From Candidatus Bathyarchaeia archaeon (GTDB lineage: Archaea > Thermoproteota > Bathyarchaeia > Bathyarchaeales > Bathycorpusculaceae): a DNA stretch of 10,716 nt. This document shows, piece after piece, positions 1 through 10,193 of this stretch. The position numbers were made by a program, and so were the translations under genes. The stretch is taken from NCBI GenBank assembly GCA_050012255.1, contig JBEKHN010000031.1:1-10716 (forward strand). The letters are read 5' to 3'. The notes beneath the pieces were generated by a model. That model ran no database searches. It worked only from the letters and a program-made list of their open reading frames with translations, and was not told the DNA's origin. Numbering within the stretch: the stretch's first letter is position 1; every line of letters begins with the position of its first letter.

Positions 1-639
1 CGTGTTGTACTCGTATTTTCCAACGGTTGAATGTATTTCCACGGTAAACTCGTGCAACAACACTTCGTTTGACCTTCGTATATCTTTCACTTTTACTTTG
101 ATTTCGCTTATTGTGTTGTTGCTTAATGCAAAGTTGCCTGGTGTTTCAGCAAGTATTGCTGACGGCGGCATGGTCAAGTATCTTCTTGTATAACCAAACG
201 TAGCTTTAAACTGGTCTGCCCATTGTCCCCAGAAGCCTTTTCCTTCTGCTTTGGCTTGCTCTCTTGATTGTTGCACGGCAGCGGTTAGCATTTCACTGGT
301 CATTTGCGCAAAAATCAAACGTTGATTGGTCACTACTCCAGTGTAAGTGTCGTATCTTCCGAGCGATTTTGGTTTTCTAAATAGAATCACTCCGACTGTA
401 GATTCTGAACTCATCTGCGGCATAGGTGTTGCAGGTTGCATCGCTGGCGGGGCTTGAGCAATTGAAGCCTGCGTGGGCGGAGGTGACGGTGGAGGCGGTG
501 GCGATGAAGATGGAGAATAAGCCAGACGCTCAGGTGTTGGTTGAGCATTAACAGGCAGCTTGTTAAGTGCGACTCCGCATTTGCCGCAAAATTTCTCGTT
601 TGGGTTTACTTGTGAACCACAGTTTCCGCAGTAGGGCAT
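1..639 (-). CDS. Zinc-ribbon protein with Pro-rich linker and putative PH-like C-terminal domain (partial, runs off the left edge)
   Basis: Not in the ORF track. Hand translation from ATG at 639 is open to base 1 (213 codons): MPYCGNCGSQVNPNEKFCGKCGVAL (CxxC-x10-CxxC zinc ribbon), then SPSSSPPPPPSPPP..., then a globular region with GVVTNQRLIF, reminiscent of PH-like folds. GTGAT RBS-like site at 646-650. Confidence 0.88.
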   Translation of the reverse strand, partial: MPYCGNCGSQVNPNEKFCGKCGVALNKLPVNAQPTPERLAYSPSSSPPPPPSPPPTQASIAQAPPAMQPATPMPQMSSESTVGVILFRKPKSLGRYDTYTGVVTNQRLIFAQMTSEMLTAAVQQSREQAKAEGKGFWGQWADQFKATFGYTRRYLTMPPSAILAETPGNFALSNNTISEIKVKVKDIRRSNEVLLHEFTVEIHSTVGKYEYNT

Positions 640-1602: not shown

Positions 1603-4600
1603 CTATTTGGATTCCCCTAATTTTTCTGTTGTCAGGATCAGCTCATTTTTCACGTATTTTTGGTTGTCGAGTTTTCTGATTCTCAGAACCTTTTCTGCGC
1701 CGTTCGCGGTTTCTCTCTCGTAGACTCTTATTTCTCCCTCAAACAAACCCAAAATCGCCTGCACTTCCTCCTGTGGGTGCATCTGCGGGTCAATAACTGC
1801 TAAGGTCGTGAAGCCTTTCGCTTTCAGGTCGGAAAGAAGCCCACTCAGCCATTTTCTGGTAACTACGGCATGATGCTGCAGCAAAACATCGGAGACGATT
1901 TCGATGCAGGCTCTCTTTGGACCGGTCGCGGACGGGTTTAGTGTGCGAAAGGCTTTGGTTAGTGCGATGTCGATTTCGGTTAGGTTTTCTATGCCTTTGA
2001 TTTTAACTACGTTAGGCAGGCTCTGCATCATGGTGTCTGCTCTGGGGTTGCAGAGGAAAAGGTAAAAGTTGGACTGATACTTTTCAGCTAAGCCTTTTGT
2101 GTTCCCCAGTTTAGCCGTGAGGTAGAAGGTTGTTTCGCCTGCTTCAGCACCCGCCTCCAAGAAGCGTTTGATGAGCAGTTCTCTTTCGTCGCTAGAGGGT
2201 GCAGCCAACACGACGGCGTAATCTTCTGGTATTCCTCCCAAAAGTAGCCTGTCTAGTTCCACCGTTCCAGTAGCTACTCTTCCTAGCAACGCCTCATAAG
2301 CGGGCTTAACTGGCTGAACGGTAATGGTGATCTGGTTGAGCTTGAAAGTTTTTTTATTGCCCAAATCATCCACGTAAACGGATTGGGCATTTAGGCTATA
2401 GCTGCCTGCTTTGGTCGCTTTAAGCTTTAATTCTACCGTTTCAACCTGGAACGGACCGATGCTTTTGTCTTTAACCTCGAGACTACCGTTTTTTAGGCTG
2501 CACCAAGATGGCAAGCTGACAACATTGAATTCAGGGGTGATTACGCCCTCGATTGTAATAAACGTCGCCACTGTTCTTCCGACGTTGACGAGGTCAAGGC
2601 GCATCTCAAACTCCTCCCCAACCAGAACCCTCCTAGAAACCATTAGATTCAATTGCACGTTGGCGTGCCCAAACCTTTCTTCAGCCTGATCAAGAAACTT
2701 CTGAGCTTTGTCCCGCTGAACTTTTGCCTCCTCAACACGACCCTGCTTCTCAAGAGCCCAAGCATACCATCTTCTAACCGATGCTCCGACGGCAGACATG
2801 CGACATACCTCCGACTCTAGAAGTTTTTCGAAAGACTGATTCGATTCTTCCCAACAGGCCTTCGCAGCAAAATACACCCCCTTAGCCAGGGGCACAAACA
2901 AAACATTATGCGCGTTCGAGAGAACCTCTGGAGGCAGTTTGCTCATTCTATCGAAGTATTCATCCGCATTCTTGAAATTCCCAAGCAAACTGTATGTCTG
3001 GACAAGATTTGCGTAAACAACCCCTTGAGTCCAACTTGCATCTGTTTTCTTACTGTACTCCAACCCTTTCAAGGCTATCGACAGTGCCTCCGCAAGTCTC
3101 CCATCCTCTGATTCAAACATGCTCAACCGATAGGTTGGAATAAACAGTTCGGTGAAAACGCCCAATTTCTCGCCTACCCTGAGGACTTCAGTAAATTCTC
3201 GCCTAGCTTCCGGAAAAAGACCGCTCTGAAAGAACCCCTGCCCTATCCACCTGATAGTTTCTATTTCTCCGCGGACGTCGCCTAGTTCCCTAAAAATGGC
3301 GGCTGAACGCAGAAGTTCACCTAAGCCTTTTTCGGGTAAACCAACATAAGCGACGTATAAGATGCCGCTTCTCCACAGTGCTTCGGCGGCGTCAGCAACA
3401 GAATTCTCTTCTTCAAACACCTGTAATGCAGCGTCATAGTCTGCCAAATCCATTCCGAAATCTCCGCGTCCTGCCCAACCATGGGCTTTTCCCCGGTTGT
3501 CGATGATTCTCGCCATCTCCAAGCGGTCATCCACAGCCAACTCCTGCGCCTTCTTTGCGTATTCCAGCAATAGGTCGGGCTTGTCGCCTTCGGCGTAGGC
3601 TGCGTCTGAGGCTTTTCTAATGGCACGAAGCCGCAACCCACCCGTTTCATACGCCGCGAGCTCGTCAAACGTTTTTATAGCTTCGCCATACATGCAATTA
3701 GAAGCGTAAGCGTCTCCCAGCCCTTCTAACGCGGTTCTCTTCTCTTCAAGATGGCCTTCTGGAATATTCTGGAGTACGTACTTGAAGTGTTTGATGGCTT
3801 GCGTGTTGCTCCACTTTGTCAGCTCGTCTTTCCCTGAGGCCAGGGCGTACTTTACTGCTTTCTCCCTGTTTCCAGCTTGAGCATAGTGGTAAGCTATGTC
3901 GCTGACACGCAGCTCGGAGTCCTTTGTGCTTTCAAGTTTCTCTCCGATTCTGTTGTGGTACCCGCGTTTTAGGGGTGGAGAAAGCTCTTCATAGAGTGTT
4001 TCTCGGGACCTTGCATGATTGAACCTATAACGGTTTTCTTCGACACAGACCAGCGAAGTAGAATGGGCAATCACGTTTAACGTTTCAAGAACCTCTAAAC
4101 TATCCTGCCCAAGTACAGTGCTGAGAAGTTCAACATCAAATTCTTCACCGATCACAGAAGCAGCGTCAAGAATGCGTCTTTGCGCGTATTTTAGGCATGC
4201 TAGTCTGCGCAATATGATGTCTTTAATTTTGCTTGGTATCCCAAGCTCGTCGACAGCGAGTCGCCACTCATTGTTTTCCTGGACAAGGCTTTTGCGTTCA
4301 TGCAGCATACGCAGCGACTCAACAACAAAGAGCGGGTTGCCCCTGCTTTCAGCTGAGAGTTTATCCGCCAGCTCTTGTTGCAGGCTTGCTCCCATCATGC
4401 TTTCTGCCATCTTAGAGACACAGGCTTGGTTGAGGCTTGACAGCTTGATTTCCGTGAACAGTTCCTCGCGCCGCATCATGCGAAGGGTTTCAGCCAGCGG
4501 ATGCGGACGCCCCTCAGCGTCAGCTGTGAGTTCCTCACTTCTAAACGTCGCTAAAACGAGGACTCTTTCTGAATCATTGATTGCTCTAGCGATGTAATGG

Positions 4601-5148
4601 AGAAGCGCCAGCGAGGCTGAATCCGCCCAGTGAACGTCCTCGATAAACAAGACTACAGGGCCATTGACGGCTATTGTGTGGAGTGTCTTAGCGACGCCTG
4701 CGAAGACTTGGTCTTTCCAGACTTGAGGTGAGATAGTTTCGGGCTTTCCAGGCTTTAGGGCTTGCTCGGTTCTGGTTAGCCACGCTGTTATCCCACGTTC
4801 CTCAGCTATCGTTTGAAAAGAGAGGTTCAGCGGTTCGGATGGCTGGCTGAAACTGCTATTTTGTTCTGTTTCTGAGGAAGCAAAGTAGTTGTTGAAGGCT
4901 TCAATGAAAGGGAAGAAAGGGACTTGAGCATCGCTTAGGCACCAACCAGCCATCACAGCTACACCCGCATTCATAGCAGACATTAGGAATTCACGGGTTA
5001 CTCTGGTTTTTCCGCTGCCTGCATCGCCCGAGACAAAAACCGTTTTTCCCTTTCCTTCAACAGCCACATTTAGGAGTGATTGTAGCTCTTCAAGTTCTTT
5101 TTCTCTCCCAACAAGAACGGGCTCAGCTAAAACTCCAAGTTTAGGCAT
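1603..5148 (-). CDS. STAND (AAA_16-like) NTPase - winged helix - TPR - Ig-like - inactive KaiC/RAD55-like protein, paralogue B (1181 aa)
   Basis: Start moved to ATG 5148 (MPKLGVLAEPVLVGRE) by alignment with the paralogue. Motifs: LVGRE, Walker A GDAGSGKT (5005-5028), Walker B LFIEDVHWAD, GxP motif GNPLFV, YRFNH. Helical TPR-like repeats ~2670-3900; beta-rich domain ~2300-2660; KaiC-like TGxxELDxLLxGGIP start at ~2280. Confidence 0.93.
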   Translation of the reverse strand: MPKLGVLAEPVLVGREKELEELQSLLNVAVEGKGKTVFVSGDAGSGKTRVTREFLMSAMNAGVAVMAGWCLSDAQVPFFPFIEAFNNYFASSETEQNSSFSQPSEPLNLSFQTIAEERGITAWLTRTEQALKPGKPETISPQVWKDQVFAGVAKTLHTIAVNGPVVLFIEDVHWADSASLALLHYIARAINDSERVLVLATFRSEELTADAEGRPHPLAETLRMMRREELFTEIKLSSLNQACVSKMAESMMGASLQQELADKLSAESRGNPLFVVESLRMLHERKSLVQENNEWRLAVDELGIPSKIKDIILRRLACLKYAQRRILDAASVIGEEFDVELLSTVLGQDSLEVLETLNVIAHSTSLVCVEENRYRFNHARSRETLYEELSPPLKRGYHNRIGEKLESTKDSELRVSDIAYHYAQAGNREKAVKYALASGKDELTKWSNTQAIKHFKYVLQNIPEGHLEEKRTALEGLGDAYASNCMYGEAIKTFDELAAYETGGLRLRAIRKASDAAYAEGDKPDLLLEYAKKAQELAVDDRLEMARIIDNRGKAHGWAGRGDFGMDLADYDAALQVFEEENSVADAAEALWRSGILYVAYVGLPEKGLGELLRSAAIFRELGDVRGEIETIRWIGQGFFQSGLFPEARREFTEVLRVGEKLGVFTELFIPTYRLSMFESEDGRLAEALSIALKGLEYSKKTDASWTQGVVYANLVQTYSLLGNFKNADEYFDRMSKLPPEVLSNAHNVLFVPLAKGVYFAAKACWEESNQSFEKLLESEVCRMSAVGASVRRWYAWALEKQGRVEEAKVQRDKAQKFLDQAEERFGHANVQLNLMVSRRVLVGEEFEMRLDLVNVGRTVATFITIEGVITPEFNVVSLPSWCSLKNGSLEVKDKSIGPFQVETVELKLKATKAGSYSLNAQSVYVDDLGNKKTFKLNQITITVQPVKPAYEALLGRVATGTVELDRLLLGGIPEDYAVVLAAPSSDERELLIKRFLEAGAEAGETTFYLTAKLGNTKGLAEKYQSNFYLFLCNPRADTMMQSLPNVVKIKGIENLTEIDIALTKAFRTLNPSATGPKRACIEIVSDVLLQHHAVVTRKWLSGLLSDLKAKGFTTLAVIDPQMHPQEEVQAILGLFEGEIRVYERETANGAEKVLRIRKLDNQKYVKNELILTTEKLGESK
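2008..2054. repeat. 47-bp perfect direct repeat, copy 1 (copy 2 at 5641-5687)
   Basis: TACGTTAGGCAGGCTCTGCATCATGGTGTCTGCTCTGGGGTTGCAGA is identical in both paralogues and encodes CNPRADTMMQSLPNV. Confidence 0.9.
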
Positions 5149-5224
5149 ATCGACCGCCCGCGTTCTTACGCAGGATCGTTTCAGATTCTTCCAGTAAGCA
5201 AATATAAGCGGAACCACTCAAAAA
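5149..5224 (-). promoter_or_regulatory. Possible internal terminator and promoter between the paralogues
   Basis: The minus strand shows TTTTT (5220-5224), then TTATATT (5201-5207), then GGCGGT shortly before ATG 5148. Confidence 0.35.
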
Positions 5225-5259: not shown

Positions 5260-8200
5260 CTATTTTAAGATCAGTTCCTCTTTCAGGTAGTTTTGGTTGA
5301 TGAGTTTTAGAATCTTCAGTGTTCTCACCAGACCCTTTTCGCCCTCTTTCTCGGCTATTCTGATTTCTCCGTCGAACAGCCCCAGAATAGTCTGCGTTTC
5401 TTCCGATGGGTGCATGCCTGGATCGATTACTGCAAGGGTTGTGAAGCCTTTTGCTTTTAGGTCTGGAAGGAGTGCGCTGAGCCATTTTCTCGTGATTACT
5501 GCGTGGTGTTGGAGAAGAACGTCAGATATGATTTCGATGCAGGCTCTTTTTTGGCCAGCTGCAGCATGGTTCAGAGTACGTAAGGTCTTGACTAAGGCTA
5601 TGTCGATTTCGGTTAGGTTTTCTACGCCTTTAAGTTTAATTACGTTAGGCAGGCTCTGCATCATGGTGTCTGCTCTGGGGTTGCAGACAAATAGGTGAAA
5701 GTTGGCCTGACATTTTTCGGCTAGAGCTTTAGTGTTTCCGGCTTCTGTGGTTATGTAGAAGGTTGTCTCGCAGGTTTCTCTGCCTGCCTCTATGAAGCGT
5801 TTGATGAGTAGGTTTCTTTCGTCGCTCGAGGGAGCCGCAAGGATCACTGAGTAGTTTTCGGGTATCCCTCCTCCCAGCAGGTCGTCGAGTTCGTCGAAGC
5901 CGCTGGAAACCCGTCCCGGAAGAACATGAACGATTGGTTGAGCTGGCTTAACCGTAACGGTGATTGAGTCAAGTTCGCATGTTTTGCTCTCGCCTAACTC
6001 GTCTATGTGGGATACTTTCGGGTTTAAGGCAAAAGTTCCAGTTTTCAAAGCTTGCAAAGTGAGCTTTGCTGTTTCAACTTGGAAAGCGCCGATTTCTCTG
6101 TTTTTCATTTCGATGCTGCAGTTTTGCAAGGCACACCAAGGCGACATTGAGATGACTTTGAACCCTTCAGAAGGAACTACGCCTTCAGCTCTGACAAGCA
6201 AACCCAGCTTCCTTGAAGCGTTGACGAAGTCGAGGCGCATTTCGAACTCTTCGCCAACCCTAACTTCTCTGCGAACCATCAAACTCGCCTTTAAATTGAC
6301 ATGAGCAAACCTTTCTTCAACATCCCGATACAACTTCTGGACTTCTTCAAGCTGAACCCTAACCTCCTCAAACAGTCCTTGTCTCTCAAGAGCCCAACTC
6401 CAATGATTTCTTAACAACACTTCGAAGCCTATGGGTTGTCCATTACGGCTTAATTCCTCGAAGGCTTTTTTGAAACGTTGATCCGCCTCTATCCACTGAC
6501 TCTTGGCAGCAAAAAACACAGCTCCTGAAAGAGCAACAAAAAAAGCGATCCCGAGGATTGGGGTTGACAAAATTTCTGGAGGAAAATTCATGAGTTTCGC
6601 ATAGTACTCTTCAGCGTGCTCTACATCTCCAAGCCTAACATATTGTCTGACTAATGCAGAGTAATTAGTGACATTTGACTTATCATAACATTCTATTGCC
6701 TTCAAGCTGTGAGAGATAGCATCCGAAAAAAGTTCCCGGCGCTCAAAATCCAGACCAACTGTAAAAGTCGCAACAGCTTTGTGCCTAGGTTGGCCTCCTA
6801 TCTTCTCAAGAACCTTTATGAGATTTAAATTTGTGCTATTTGATTCTTCAAAAAGCCCACAAACGGAAAAAACGTATCCTTTCATCATTAGCGCTTCGAT
6901 TTGTCCTGGAAAATCTTCAAGCTCTTGGTATAGGGCAACTGATCGTAGAATCGAGCTAACTGCTTTTTCCTGCAGACCTGCAGTATTGGAATAGACATAG
7001 CTGATATGGAAGAAAACCCTTGCGGCATCCTCAAGAGAGTATTCTTCCTCAAAAACCCGCAAAGCCTCTTCAGAAGTCTTTGAGCTTGTCTTGAATTCGC
7101 CAGAAGCATTTTCAGCTTTTGCCTTAAACAAAAGAACTCGCGCACTTTCCAAACGATCAGAGCCCGCATACTTCTCAGCCTCCTTTGCCAACTCAATCGC
7201 ATGACTAGCGGCTACAGCAAAAATAGTTGCGTCTAATGCTTTTCGGTAGGCTCGCAGCCTCACCTTTCCAGTCTCCGATTTAGCAAGTGACTCGAAGATC
7301 TTTCCCGCTTCAACATACATGCTATTCGCATAGAATGCGTCGCCAAGTCCTTCCTTGGCTATCATTCTTGCATTTGTATTTTCTGCCGTTTCAGAAATGT
7401 TTTGGAGTACATAGTTGAAGTGTTTGATGGCTTCTTGGTTGCTATATTTTGCGAGTGTGTCTTGGCCTGCAGCCAACGAGTACTCCATAGCTTTTTCCTT
7501 ATTTCCTGCCTGAGTAAAATGGTAAGCTAAATCACTAAGAGGCAAATTGCTGTTTTTGCCCATGTTTTCAAGTTTTTCCGCAATTCTGGCATGATAGCCC
7601 TTCTTCAGGGGCAAAGGCAGTTCTTCATAGAGTGCTTCTCGAGACTTTGCGTGGTCAAACCTGTAGCAGTCGCCTTCGACGCGAACAATTGAAGTTGTCT
7701 GGGCAATTACAGTCAGAGTTTCGAGCACATCTAGACGGTCTTGATTTAGGACTACGCTGAGAAGGTCCAGGTCGAATTTTTCGCCTATCACGGAAGCTGC
7801 TTCAAGCACTCTTGTTTGGGGGCGCTTTAGGATCGCGAGTCTTCTTAGGATGATGTCTTTGATTTTTGTGGGTATGCCCAGTTCGTCGACGGTGATGCGC
7901 CACTCATTGTTTTCTTGGATTAGACTTTTGCGTTCAAAGAGCATTCGAAGGGATTCTACGACAAAGAGTGGGTTGCCCTGGCTTTCCGCTATCAGTTTTT
8001 CTGCTAGGTTTGGTTGGAGGTTTCCGCCTATCATGTTTTCAGCTATCTTTTCGACGTCGGTATGGTTTAGGTTTGGGAGTTTGATTTCTGTGTAGAGGTC
8101 TTCTCGCCCCATCGCCCGCAGCGCTTCAGCCAGAGGATGCGGGTGCCCTTCAGCGTCAGAGGTTAACGCTTCGCTTCGGAAAGTCGCCAAAACCAAAATT

Positions 8201-8790
8201 TTTTCGGAGTTGTTTACTGAGCGGGCAATGTACTGCAGAAGCGCCAAAGAGGCGGAGTCTGCCCAGTGAATATCCTCCAAAAACAATATGATAGGCTCCT
8301 GAGCGGATATTAAATGTAGGGATCTTGCTACGGCGGCGAACGCATGGTCTTTCCAAACTTGGGGCGAAAGTAATTGGGGCTGTCCCAGTTTTGTGGCTGC
8401 TCCAGGCCCAGTCAGCAGCGTCGAAATATCCTGGTTTTCGCTTCCGATCTGTGCCACTTCCCCTAAGCCGATCCGGGCTCCGGGTTGCTGGAAGCTGACG
8501 GACTCTTCTTCTTCGATGACGGATGCTGAGTAAGTGTTGAAGGCTTCTATAAATGGGAAGTAGGGGACTGCTGCGTCGCTGAGACACCATCCAGCCATGA
8601 CTGCGATGCCTTTTTTCTTGGCGGCGTTTAGGAATTCTCGGGTGAGTCTTGTTTTTCCGCTTCCCGCTTCGCCTGATATGAAAACAGTTGTGCCTTCGCC
8701 CCGAACAGCTGAATCGAAGCAGCGCTGCAGTTCCTCAAGTTCACGTTCTCTGCCTACCAGGACGGGTTCAGATAGGATCGCTTGTTTCAT
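5260..8790 (-). CDS. STAND (AAA_16-like) NTPase - winged helix - TPR - Ig-like - inactive KaiC/RAD55-like protein, paralogue A (1176 aa)
   Basis: Motifs: LVGRE, Walker A GEAGSGKT (8650-8673), Walker B LFLEDIHWAD, GNPLFV, YRFDH. TPR-like repeats ~6310-7530; beta-rich domain ~5940-6305; KaiC-like SGFDELDDLLGGGIP start at ~5913. AGGA upstream of the ATG. Confidence 0.94.
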   Translation of the reverse strand: MKQAILSEPVLVGRERELEELQRCFDSAVRGEGTTVFISGEAGSGKTRLTREFLNAAKKKGIAVMAGWCLSDAAVPYFPFIEAFNTYSASVIEEEESVSFQQPGARIGLGEVAQIGSENQDISTLLTGPGAATKLGQPQLLSPQVWKDHAFAAVARSLHLISAQEPIILFLEDIHWADSASLALLQYIARSVNNSEKILVLATFRSEALTSDAEGHPHPLAEALRAMGREDLYTEIKLPNLNHTDVEKIAENMIGGNLQPNLAEKLIAESQGNPLFVVESLRMLFERKSLIQENNEWRITVDELGIPTKIKDIILRRLAILKRPQTRVLEAASVIGEKFDLDLLSVVLNQDRLDVLETLTVIAQTTSIVRVEGDCYRFDHAKSREALYEELPLPLKKGYHARIAEKLENMGKNSNLPLSDLAYHFTQAGNKEKAMEYSLAAGQDTLAKYSNQEAIKHFNYVLQNISETAENTNARMIAKEGLGDAFYANSMYVEAGKIFESLAKSETGKVRLRAYRKALDATIFAVAASHAIELAKEAEKYAGSDRLESARVLLFKAKAENASGEFKTSSKTSEEALRVFEEEYSLEDAARVFFHISYVYSNTAGLQEKAVSSILRSVALYQELEDFPGQIEALMMKGYVFSVCGLFEESNSTNLNLIKVLEKIGGQPRHKAVATFTVGLDFERRELFSDAISHSLKAIECYDKSNVTNYSALVRQYVRLGDVEHAEEYYAKLMNFPPEILSTPILGIAFFVALSGAVFFAAKSQWIEADQRFKKAFEELSRNGQPIGFEVLLRNHWSWALERQGLFEEVRVQLEEVQKLYRDVEERFAHVNLKASLMVRREVRVGEEFEMRLDFVNASRKLGLLVRAEGVVPSEGFKVISMSPWCALQNCSIEMKNREIGAFQVETAKLTLQALKTGTFALNPKVSHIDELGESKTCELDSITVTVKPAQPIVHVLPGRVSSGFDELDDLLGGGIPENYSVILAAPSSDERNLLIKRFIEAGRETCETTFYITTEAGNTKALAEKCQANFHLFVCNPRADTMMQSLPNVIKLKGVENLTEIDIALVKTLRTLNHAAAGQKRACIEIISDVLLQHHAVITRKWLSALLPDLKAKGFTTLAVIDPGMHPSEETQTILGLFDGEIRIAEKEGEKGLVRTLKILKLINQNYLKEELILK
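5641..5687. repeat. 47-bp perfect direct repeat, copy 2 (copy 1 at 2008-2054)
   Basis: Identical to 2008-2054, offset 3633 bp. Confidence 0.9.
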
Positions 8791-8969: not shown

Positions 8970-10193
8970 ATGAGCGCCCCACAGCCTGCCGTCAAGAAAA
9001 GTCTTAGAAGCCAATTGTTCCTGCCAGCCTTGATCTTAGGCAGTTTCTTAACATTTACATTCGCAGTTTTCTATTACAATGCTCTGGTAGACGTAGCTTC
9101 CACGCTAAAAGTCACTGTGGGAACCGCAAGCCAGATTCCAACGGTTAGCAGTTATATGGGTCTTATCGTAGGTTTAGCCATGGGCTTTTTGGCCGTCAAA
9201 TACAAGCATAAATCATTGTTCCTGTTTGGAACGGCATTTTACGCCGTCGGAGCTCTGGGCTGCTTCTTCGCCGCAGATTTTGCCTCTATGCTCTTCTTCA
9301 ATATTTTCATTGGAATGGGCAGCACAATGATTGCCATTATGGTTTTCGCCTTAATCGGAGATTTCTTTTTTTTGCAAAAAAAGGGTTTAGCAATTGGGCT
9401 AGCAACAGCTGCAGGTGGTGGTCTTGCGAACTTGATTATGCCTCAATTGACGAGTGTGATCACGGACGCCGCGGGATGGCGCGCCGTGCTCTTGTGGGTT
9501 ATTTTTCCAATCTCAATAGCATGTTTGCTTCTAGGCTTTTTCATCCTTCCTTCGAAACCGCGGCAGTTGCAGGCTGCAAACAAGCCTCAATACGTGCAGG
9601 CTTTTAAACAAGTCTTGATAAACAAATCCGCAGTTGCATGCGTGGTCGGAACGGCGCTCATGTGGGTCTCATTCCTGGTGCCCGTGTATGCAGTGACGTT
9701 TTTCAGGTTGCATTTTCATGAGTCTTTGAGTACGGGCGCGATCTTCTATTCGGCCGCTTCAGCAATGCTGATTTTAGGAGACATAGTTGGGGGACGATTG
9801 ATTAACCGAATCGGGAGGAAACCTCTCACAGTTGTGGCAGGTGTGATCCAGGGAATATTCGCGATCTTGATCGTTTTTGTTCCCAATGCAGGGATATCTG
9901 TAGTAATGTGGATGGTATCAGCAGCTTTTGGTGGTATAATGGTAACGGCTCTTATCGGTTTGGTTCTTGAGCAAGTTCCAGGTTTTCGAGGCACGATGGT
10001 GTCTCTAAATGCTTCGTTTCGGTACATTGGCCTAATTGTGGGATTGAGCATAAGCGGTTTGTTGCTAAACCTTTACGCTAACAACTTTCAAATCCTATAT
10101 GCAATGTTTGGGGTTTGCGGCGTAGCCTCAGCTGCCGTTGTGTTCTTTTTTGCAAAAGATCCTTGCAAAAACCAATTGCCTCCAACTGCCTGA
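8970..10193 (+). CDS. MFS transporter (DHA1/AraJ-like efflux permease), 407 aa
   Basis: About 12 hydrophobic segments in two halves; motif A-like GGRLINRIGRK in the second half; GWRAV after TM5; FRGTMVSLN before TM11. Substrate unknown. Confidence 0.93.
   Translation: MSAPQPAVKKSLRSQLFLPALILGSFLTFTFAVFYYNALVDVASTLKVTVGTASQIPTVSSYMGLIVGLAMGFLAVKYKHKSLFLFGTAFYAVGALGCFFAADFASMLFFNIFIGMGSTMIAIMVFALIGDFFFLQKKGLAIGLATAAGGGLANLIMPQLTSVITDAAGWRAVLLWVIFPISIACLLLGFFILPSKPRQLQAANKPQYVQAFKQVLINKSAVACVVGTALMWVSFLVPVYAVTFFRLHFHESLSTGAIFYSAASAMLILGDIVGGRLINRIGRKPLTVVAGVIQGIFAILIVFVPNAGISVVMWMVSAAFGGIMVTALIGLVLEQVPGFRGTMVSLNASFRYIGLIVGLSISGLLLNLYANNFQILYAMFGVCGVASAAVVFFFAKDPCKNQLPPTA

Follow-up and report, generated by a model that had tools for sequence, protein, structure and literature searches.

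An inactivated KaiC domain at the C-terminus of paired STAND NTPases from a Bathyarchaeia archaeon: a putative docking module of KaiC-centred signalling

Two large adjacent genes of an uncultured archaeon from peat (Candidatus Bathyarchaeia) encode proteins that combine an intact STAND NTPase module with a C-terminal KaiC-like domain, in which most motifs of the ATP site are replaced. Both genes lie in the window analysed here, i.e. the entire 10,716-bp contig JBEKHN010000031.1 of assembly GCA_050012255.1, and are referred to as copy 1 (P0001) and copy 2 (P0002). What could be the role of an ATPase domain that appears to have lost its ATP site and is still conserved? Domains of this kind have been named iKaiC, the inactivated KaiC-like ATPase domain of archaeal signal transduction, in a passage of Galperin et al. 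2018 (J Bacteriol, PMC5847659). A first interpretation of the window, made without database searches (the sequence-only reading), regarded the domain as a selected pseudo-ATPase that could serve as an adaptor of active RecA-fold proteins or as a decoy for viral inhibitors. In light of the family-wide comparison described here, iKaiC is viewed with moderate confidence as a putative output module of KaiC-centred signalling that would serve in docking or assembly independently of nucleotides, and not as an enzyme. Its proposed binding to active KaiC builds on a genomic association in relatives, and the STAND module itself is intact. The genes, domains and motifs at issue are as follows:

1603..5217, minus strand: copy 1 gene (P0001), 1204 aa from GTG; AAA_16 NTPase, helical/winged-helix region, tetratricopeptide repeats (TPR), Ig-like domain, dead KaiC
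5260..8790, minus strand: copy 2 gene (P0002), 1176 aa, with an architecture identical to that of copy 1
1621..2289, minus strand: iKaiC domain of copy 1, residues 977-1199; Pfam PF06745 (KaiC), E 2e-12
5263..5925, minus strand: iKaiC domain of copy 2; Pfam PF06745, E 2.6e-14
2182..2205, minus strand: degenerate P-loop AAPSSDER of copy 1, Glu at the Walker A Lys position and Arg at the Thr position
5815-5838, minus strand: degenerate P-loop AAPSSDER of copy 2 (translation)
1888..1914, minus strand: Walker-B-equivalent strand RACIEIVSD of copy 1, Glu aligned with the Walker B Asp and followed by a family-conserved Ser-Asp
5521-5547, minus strand: Walker-B-equivalent strand RACIEIISD of copy 2 (translation)
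1663..1674, minus strand: KLDN in the position of KMRG, copy 1; Lys retained, Arg finger gone
5296-5307, minus strand: KLIN in the position of KMRG, copy 2 (translation)

The former ATP site and its conservation

A search of the 230-aa domain against 1.84 billion cluster representatives brought up 559 proteins with E<=1e-3, of which 233 reached E<=1e-30. Family counts given below refer to a set of 138 members, i.e. those rows covering at least 85% of the domain among 152 (150 listed matches plus the two window copies), from which 14 fragments were dropped.

The replacement of Walker A by AAPSSDER had been read from both copies with exact coordinates and translation, and the motif does fall onto the Walker A of active relatives: it aligns onto GEPGTGKT of Sso2452 in a phmmer comparison with PDB sequences, and SPSxDER aligns onto GPGxGKT of active Bathyarchaeia KaiC in an hhalign profile-profile alignment (probability 95%). 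Equally exact was the placement of KLDN and KLIN at the K-x-R finger, where copy 1 has Asp and copy 2 has Ile opposite the Arg of KMRG. The Walker B strand RACIEI(V/I)SD was likewise located correctly, but its supposed loss of the acidic residue does not hold, as E132 of the domain aligns with the Walker B residue D142 of active KaiC in the profile alignment, and D or E occupies this position in 116/138 family members. The Walker B acid is thus retained. The catalytic carboxylate pair (D61/E62 in active KaiC) is affected to different degrees. Its first position is Ala or Thr in the dead domain and hence lost; its second position holds Lys in copy 1 but Glu in copy 2, with an acidic residue (D/E) there in 89/138 members. 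Judged by these alignments, the domain falls short of an active KaiC ATPase in Walker A, in the carboxylate pair and in the K-M-R-G finger, and agrees with it in the Walker B acid. The overall fold, in turn, is predicted to be preserved. An AlphaFold2 model from a 58-sequence alignment reached a mean predicted local distance difference test score (pLDDT) of 96.1 and a predicted template modelling score (pTM) of 0.92, with PH0284 (E 9e-13, template modelling score 0.78), Sso2452, KaiC CI and FlaH as best Foldseek matches. Together with the PF06745 matches listed above, the model identifies the domain as a genuine KaiC-type RecA fold.

Is this loss a recent accident of the two genes? That an identical 8-mer recurs in two domains of 73% identity is by itself within chance (0.73^8 ~0.08), so the sharing of the altered P-loop by both copies, correctly observed at the outset, is not significant on its own. 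Its significance derives instead from the conservation of the replacement motif, [TA][SA]PSxDE[RK], throughout the family. The Walker A Lys and Ser/Thr were found in 0/138 representatives, down to about 37% identity, and GxxGxGK[ST] was found anywhere in 0/138. Glu occupies the Lys position in 132/138, preceded by Asp in 108/138 and followed by Arg/Lys in 126/138, and the Arg-finger position is Arg in just 16/138. Near-invariant residues specific to the family include W149, F185, G187, D136, R147, H173, N95 and C82. These patterns point to an ancient inactivation accompanied by a new conserved motif and not to recent decay; homologues with intact motifs and signs of recent decay, named beforehand as a finding that would speak against selection, did not turn up in the family alignment.

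The degree of conservation is consistent with this. The iKaiC domains of the two copies share 158/216 aligned codons (73.1%, or 72% by another alignment), in agreement with the initial hand count of about 73%. As had also been recognised, they constitute the best-conserved region of the pair, since the identities elsewhere are 60.7% for the NTPase, 69.0% for the helical region, 39.2% for the TPR and 49.2% for the Ig-like part. The same holds for 62 full-length STAND-iKaiC homologues, for which the mean pairwise identity is 0.608 in iKaiC, 0.581 in the helical/winged-helix region, 0.537 in the NTPase, 0.400 in the Ig-like part and 0.361 in the TPR, and 29% of the iKaiC columns are at least 90% conserved. 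Comparison of copy 1 with the DNA of the orthologous domain at locus L008 (residues 1013-1196) gave a synonymous divergence (dS) of 0.50 and a nonsynonymous divergence (dN) of 0.056, i.e. a dN/dS of 0.11, far from 1. This comparison was used because synonymous sites between the paralogues are near saturation (proportion of synonymous differences, pS, 0.64-0.76), which renders the paralogue ratio of about 0.13 (proportion of nonsynonymous differences, pN, 0.165; pS 0.637 for the domain) indicative only. Hence, strong purifying selection on the domain is indicated, and the notion of a selected pseudo-ATPase, with which the study set out, gains considerable support.

The same data bear on the idea that the domain is a cryptic enzyme that binds and hydrolyses a nucleotide at a non-canonical site. 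The Walker B acid, kept in 116/138, and the D/E at the second catalytic carboxylate in 89/138, copy 2 among them, would suit such an activity. The Gly-rich loop, the Lys and the Thr, however, occur in 0/138, a Glu takes the place of the Lys in 132/138, and copy 1 carries a Lys at the position of the catalytic Glu. A cryptic enzyme is therefore regarded as highly improbable.

Partner domains and the link to active KaiC

In nearly all of the 150 representatives the domain is found at the extreme C-terminus. A Pfam scan that covered 118/150 (74/90 proteins of up to 620 aa, with 16 fragments omitted, and 44/60 longer ones) revealed more than a dozen types of N-terminal partner domains: AAA_16-TPR, TPR alone, a CBS pair, winged helix-turn-helix (wHTH; HTH_45), NYN, Sa_NUDIX (SMODS-associated NUDIX), RyR, LRR, FIST_C, CBM96, beta-propeller/laminin-G, PocR-aminotransferase, ATP-grasp, Peptidase_C11 and protein kinase. 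Twelve proteins contain two full tandem iKaiC domains, all without Walker A, an arrangement reminiscent of the CI-CII double-domain layout of KaiC. Examples of these are P0155-P0166 (about 1545 aa), P0157 and P0161, as well as L045:6498-9254. A further class of about 1300-1375 aa ends in iKaiC (L009, L012, L014, L028, L031, L032, L046-L050 and others); its first ~1080 residues are without a Pfam match, although a Peptidase_C11 domain was recognised in one representative, P0068. Nine iKaiC matches, mostly of this class, occur in a single genome (G160).

The family is sizeable. A word-indexed search among proteins of similar length returned 1439 clusters at E<=1e-10, with public names such as "KaiC/GvpD/RAD55 family RecA-like ATPase", "tetratricopeptide repeat protein", "AAA family ATPase" and "hypothetical protein". 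None of the public names of these matching clusters flags the inactivation, and names such as the first and the third wrongly suggest a catalytic domain. Within a class sample, the domain was detected in 31/201 genomes (the window's own counted) with 1-9 copies per genome. A phylum sample gave matches in 12/301 genomes, only two of them labelled "same phylum" and both weak (E about 1e-23). Among the nearest relatives, 7/8 loci are labelled Candidatus Bathyarchaeia or Bathyarchaeota. The remaining one (L011), which has an adjacent active KaiC, is a 4.4-kb contig of a metagenome-assembled genome labelled Candidatus Acidiferrales bacterium, and this bacterial label is probably due to mis-binning. 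By sequence comparison, iKaiC thus represents a large family of anciently inactivated KaiC domains that is centred on Bathyarchaeia.

One function suggested by these architectures is that of a ligand sensor, as proposed for MEDS: the remodelled ATP pocket would bind a small molecule, a metal or a phospho-ligand, and iKaiC would be the input. Conserved polar residues in or beside the old ATP site (D36, E37, R38, C82, N95, R128, S135, D136, H141, R147 and H173) are compatible with this, as is the need of the attached effector-like domains (NYN, Sa_NUDIX, Peptidase_C11, wHTH) for an input. Moreover, MEDS and DUF835 are labelled as iKaiC-type domains in a section of Galperin et al. 2018 (PMC5847659). 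The TPR array, however, is already the expected sensor in STAND proteins, an acidic D-E where G-K would normally stand makes phosphate ligands less likely, and the tandem iKaiC-iKaiC proteins as well as the linkage to one active KaiC fit protein-protein pairing better. A sensory role is thus conceivable but rather unlikely.

This linkage emerged from a comparison of 47 loci (7 + 40 from separate searches, L014 and L038 apparently being the same contig). A dedicated active KaiC of 252 aa (250-257 aa) is encoded in 14/47 of these, in 11 cases within 200 bp of the iKaiC gene. All 14 active KaiC proteins belong to a single, closely knit group of orthologues in which GGPGxGKT, D61/E62, Walker B D142 and K220-M-R222 do not vary, and the one from L008 matches cyanobacterial KaiC at E 1e-44 to 2e-53. 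Among the 49 genomes of families f1-f5 in the class sample (the window's own excluded), iKaiC and this active KaiC (at E<=1e-100) occur in precisely the same 12; two further genomes have distant KaiC only, at about E 1e-43. Since the presence of iKaiC and KaiC varies even inside genera (2/11 in g4, 2/5 in g21), several gains or losses must be assumed. In a recurrent module (L031 and L032), the genes for a wHTH-iKaiC protein (327 aa) and for a protein of ~1315 aa with a C-terminal iKaiC accompany that of the active KaiC, and a bactofilin-like gene is close by. The partner associated in relatives is therefore a specific, dedicated KaiC and not RadA, RAD55 or FlaH, which had been suggested alongside KaiC.

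KaiC-like proteins have reportedly been proposed as the main archaea-specific signalling hubs by Makarova, Galperin and Koonin in 2017. As an output module of such a hub, iKaiC may dock via the old ring interface of the KaiC fold, given that the conserved residues lie in or near the old ATP-site motifs, which in KaiC hexamers form the subunit interface. A signal would cause the STAND NTPase to oligomerise by way of its intact AAA_16 module and TPR sensor, which would bring the C-terminal iKaiC domains together. The clustered domains could then pair with other iKaiC domains, either those of the sister protein or those of wHTH-iKaiC regulators, and also with the active KaiC hub where one exists. 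This output would be analogous to that of the C-terminal output domain of MalT-type STAND regulators.

A related proposal is that of a poison subunit, in which iKaiC, once inserted into the ring of active KaiC, would block the ATP site next to it and thereby let the STAND sensor turn the hub off. The loss of the Arg finger (R in 16/138) with retention of the Lys of K-M/L would be in line with this, as would an acidic pseudo-P-loop that could take the partner's Lys/Arg finger, and the genomic linkage to active KaiC. However, such a subunit is a special case of docking that the data do not distinguish from it, and its partner was not found in the window's genome. The poison subunit is considered unlikely.

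Several observations also weigh against the docking module favoured here. The co-occurrence of iKaiC with active KaiC overstates the number of independent events, the genomes being related. None of 267 proteins examined joins an active KaiC to iKaiC in one polypeptide. As far as the fetched regions extend, no active KaiC was seen next to the more divergent iKaiC forms (517-720 aa) that other families of the class carry at L051-L061, and among the STAND-type loci (L008, L010, L029, L030, L037 and L043) an active KaiC occurs in the fetched region of only 1/6 (L008). Searches of the window's genome with PF06745, a hidden Markov model (HMM) of the partner and tblastn did not reveal a dedicated active KaiC. 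The PF06745 matches in this genome are the two iKaiC copies, RadA (C29), a RadB-like protein with GEAETGKT (C7) and an unrelated NTPase (C23); the top scores of the partner HMM (25 bits) and of tblastn (42 bits) both fall on the RadB-like gene. On another contig of the genome, a stand-alone 91-aa wHTH protein (C3:26121-26396) is 78% identical to the wHTH of the relatives' wHTH-iKaiC regulators. It ends where the linker and iKaiC would start and adjoins the gene of a 407-aa bactofilin-like repeat protein, the whole stretch being C3:24495-26396. No iKaiC remnant follows this wHTH on C3, and the active KaiC of the relatives' module is missing there as well. Because this syntenic wHTH/bactofilin region is assembled without iKaiC or active KaiC, the hub module seems to be truly absent rather than unassembled. 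Unless the short contig is mis-binned, the two paralogues would have to rely in this genome on contacts between iKaiC domains alone. The adaptor role anticipated by the sequence-only reading thus finds support for the family alone, through genomic association (14/47 loci; 12/12 genomes), but not for this genome and 5/6 STAND-type loci.

The missing hub raises the question of whether both genes are orphaned remnants, functionless and decaying after the loss of their partner. The absence of both the hub and the wHTH-iKaiC fusion from the window's genome would be expected from such a scenario. Yet both open reading frames (ORFs) are uninterrupted across ~1180 codons, the dN/dS amounts to about 0.11-0.13, and a full-length relative with 90% identity (P0234) exists elsewhere. 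Decay after hub loss is accordingly held to be very unlikely.

The contig, its genes and their mosaic history

The remaining features of the window are the following:

4555..5115, minus strand: AAA_16 STAND NTPase domain of copy 1, Pfam E 4.3e-26; Walker A GDAGSGKT at 5005-5028
8191..8760, minus strand: AAA_16 NTPase domain of copy 2, Pfam E 5.3e-30; Walker A GEAGSGKT at 8650-8673
2668..3807, minus strand: TPR-rich part of copy 1, presumably the sensor; here the two copies diverge most (39% identity)
2317..2634, minus strand: Ig-like (BatD/DUF11-like) spacer of copy 1; weak Pfam PF13584, E 0.0067 and 0.0017, below cut-off
8970..10193, plus strand: major facilitator superfamily (MFS) transporter, divergent from copy 2; PF07690, E 3e-38
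1-639, minus strand: zinc-ribbon protein with a long proline-rich linker, extending past the contig end
929-1201, plus strand: small Cys-rich ORF with a desulforedoxin-like N-terminal motif, PF06397, E 3e-5

The two large proteins are tandem paralogues, identical at 657/1182 residues (56%) of a full-length alignment. Both display the hallmarks of an AAA_16/MalT-like STAND NTPase: an intact GxxGSGKT, a helical arm and TPR_12 matches as the repeat sensor. The Ig-like spacer of the BatD/DUF11-like type is also found in relatives. Translation of copy 1 probably begins with the ATG at 5146-5148 (1181 aa) and not with the GTG at 5215-5217, because P0234, which is 90% identical, aligns from residue 24 of P0001, and copy 2 does likewise. 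From this ATG, the spacing between the two genes is 111 bp. In one relative (L010:2143-5703), the STAND-iKaiC gene is interrupted and reads as an ORF of 723 aa, which contains GEAGSGKS, followed by one of 459 aa, possibly a frameshift or a pseudogene. As in the window, an MFS gene lies divergently upstream of the STAND-iKaiC gene at L029:12303-13550 (minus strand), and its product shares 32% identity over 361 aa with the window's transporter. With 2/6 STAND loci (the window counted in, L010 left out), the divergent transporter is a possible, weakly supported associated neighbour.

The genome comprises 2.35 Mb in 38 contigs and is 98.5% complete with 5.0% contamination. The window, its contig C31, is slightly atypical in composition: its GC content is 0.457 compared with 0.480 for the genome, and 3.7% of random 10.7-kb chunks show a larger tetranucleotide distance. 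C31 could be an accessory island or a mis-binned contig, the latter owing to its shortness and its slightly atypical composition.

Copy 1 itself has a composite history. Its relative P0234 is closely similar throughout the N-terminal regions (96.5% in the NTPase, 96.3% in the helical part, 91.1% in the TPR and 100% in the Ig-like part) and matches it exactly through AAPSSDER, yet is only 72% identical over the entire iKaiC domain. Past residue ~1013 and up to the C-terminus, the affinity of copy 1 shifts to P0167 (~92% identity) and L008 (90%). The N-terminal regions of P0167 share only 42-76% with copy 1. Phylogenetic trees pair copy 1 with P0234 by the N-terminal part (support 1.0) and with P0167 by the C-terminal part (support 0.94), and at the DNA level pS between copy 1 and L008 drops from 0.65-0.85 to 0.36 exactly at residue ~1013. 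Since identities, trees and pS all switch there, they indicate a recombination breakpoint directly after the dead P-loop, at about window position 2179-2182, in the codon following AAPSSDER. The C-terminal ~190 residues thus appear to act as an exchangeable cassette. Owing to this mosaic history, how far the pair has diverged since duplication cannot simply be read off its 73% identity. A reciprocal swap of the iKaiC cassette between the two window genes was considered as well and set aside; the C-terminal part of copy 2 groups with the N-terminal lineage of copy 1 (support 0.995), but the raw identities are flat (71-75%), so that this pattern is suggestive only.

The breakpoint invites a bolder version of the docking module. 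Speculatively, and with little confidence, the acidic pseudo-P-loop (D-E), the Walker B acid and the Ser-Asp may together mimic the charge of a bound triphosphate and accept the Lys/Arg finger of a neighbouring subunit in the nucleotide-free state. A ring or half-ring of dead KaiC domains, put together as the STAND NTPase oligomerises upon a signal, could then cap, seed or silence the hub and recruit wHTH-iKaiC regulators, and the ~190-residue segment would be swapped as a specificity cassette. The position of the breakpoint directly after the P-loop is consistent with the last of these ideas. If true, this would amount to an archaeal "signalosome" with a pseudo-ATPase ring as its output platform.

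The recombination history also bears on the integrated decoy, the second role proposed by the sequence-only reading. As in plant NLRs, the dead KaiC would mimic a host RecA-fold target of viral inhibitors and would be guarded by the STAND module. Besides the recombination history, the layout of STAND NTPase and TPR, which resembles immune sensors, and the patchy, variable copy number (31/201 genomes, 1-9 copies) could be cited in its favour. Nevertheless, the domain is not a variable add-on; it is constant in all 62 aligned STAND homologues (62/62), where it is the most conserved region, and it also ends many non-STAND proteins of unrelated architecture. With only about 17-20% identity to active KaiC, or 14-20% across the active KaiC proteins compared, it would be a poor mimic. 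Likewise, the only match in a PADLOC-DB 2.0 scan was BrxD, weak (23-27 bits) and confined to the P-loop region, and no phage or defence genes were seen among the genes of the window. The decoy is thus hardly tenable and the least probable of the explanations considered.

Relation to known systems

The closest published counterpart is the iKaiC of Galperin et al. 2018 (PMC5847659), parts of which list iKaiC-REC, HalOD1-iKaiC, DUF835 (iKaiC) and MEDS (iKaiC) and credit Makarova, Galperin & Koonin 2017 (mBio) for the detailed description of iKaiC and for the proposal of KaiC as a "hub". Among the papers listed by a full-text search of the literature since 2017 with inactivated-KaiC and pseudo-ATPase terms, Galperin 2018 (PMC5847659) is the only one to use them for such domains. 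A search on KaiC, STAND and Bathyarchaeota, which did not extend to the catalogue of Makarova et al. 2017, gave no STAND fusion among the papers listed. As far as Galperin et al. 2018 describes them, published iKaiC domains share with the present one a KaiC fold with disrupted ATPase motifs, the fusion to signalling domains and, as far as relatives of the window's genome are concerned, the linkage to active KaiC "hubs". They differ in their carriers, which are REC and HalOD1 fusions from Methanosarcinaceae, Halobacteria and others instead of the STAND NTPase-TPR proteins of Bathyarchaeia, and the domain described here has its own conserved signature, [TA][SA]PSxDE[RK]. Conserved, disrupted ATPase motifs and fusion to varied input and output domains thus characterise the present family too, and association with active KaiC is seen in relatives (14/47 loci, 12/12 f1-f5 genomes) but not in the window's genome or in 5/6 STAND-type loci.

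Further close counterparts are the single-domain archaeal KaiC-like ATPases (PH0284, 2dr3; Sso2452, 2w0m; PH0186, 2zts; FlaH/ArlH, 4yds) and CI/CII of cyanobacterial KaiC. In contrast to these, the dead domain is devoid of the P-loop, the Arg finger and the first catalytic carboxylate, is only 14-20% identical in sequence, and is in nearly all cases the C-terminal module of a larger protein. MalT-type STAND regulators consist of an AAA_16 nucleotide-binding oligomerisation domain, a helical arm, a TPR/SUPR sensor and a C-terminal output domain of the LuxR DNA-binding type. The iKaiC proteins follow the same domain order, and matches to the Pfam families AAA_16 and TPR_MalT occur in the iKaiC family. 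The output module, however, is a dead KaiC instead of a LuxR-type DNA-binding domain and is preceded by the Ig-like spacer. The DUF7504, DUF7125 and DUF7090 "RAD55 family ATPase" proteins of Methanobacteriota give weak, overlapping Pfam matches on the same domain, and language-model features place them nearest to it among the clusters (scores 0.94-0.96). These matches are mostly near or below cut-off, and the proteins in question are stand-alone, ~235 aa long and from another phylum. Among eukaryotes, RecA-fold pseudo-ATPases with degenerate ATP sites act as ring or filament partners in the Elp4/5/6 ring and among the Rad51 paralogues (Shu complex). Some members of the iKaiC family give weak matches to the PAXNEB (Elp4) Pfam family, but the demonstrated kinship with Elp4/5/6 or the Rad51 paralogues is that of the superfamily, and their partners and biology differ.

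To our knowledge, next to nothing is known of how signals enter or leave KaiC hubs. The iKaiC family offers a concrete and abundant module for such studies, with a defined signature, purifying selection, interchangeable sensor and effector partners and a dedicated active KaiC in most lineages. Its fusion to STAND NTPases suggests that NLR-like, oligomerisation-driven sensing feeds the KaiC network, and the STAND-iKaiC pair without a hub in this genome constitutes a natural test of iKaiC acting alone. Taken together, the concept of iKaiC as a signalling domain is already known (2017-2018). New, judged apart from the 2017 catalogue, are the family signature and the STAND NTPase as a carrier, in which iKaiC is the best-conserved part. 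To these are added the 12/12 co-occurrence with one active KaiC along with its absence from the window's genome, the tandem double-iKaiC proteins, and the breakpoint directly after the P-loop.

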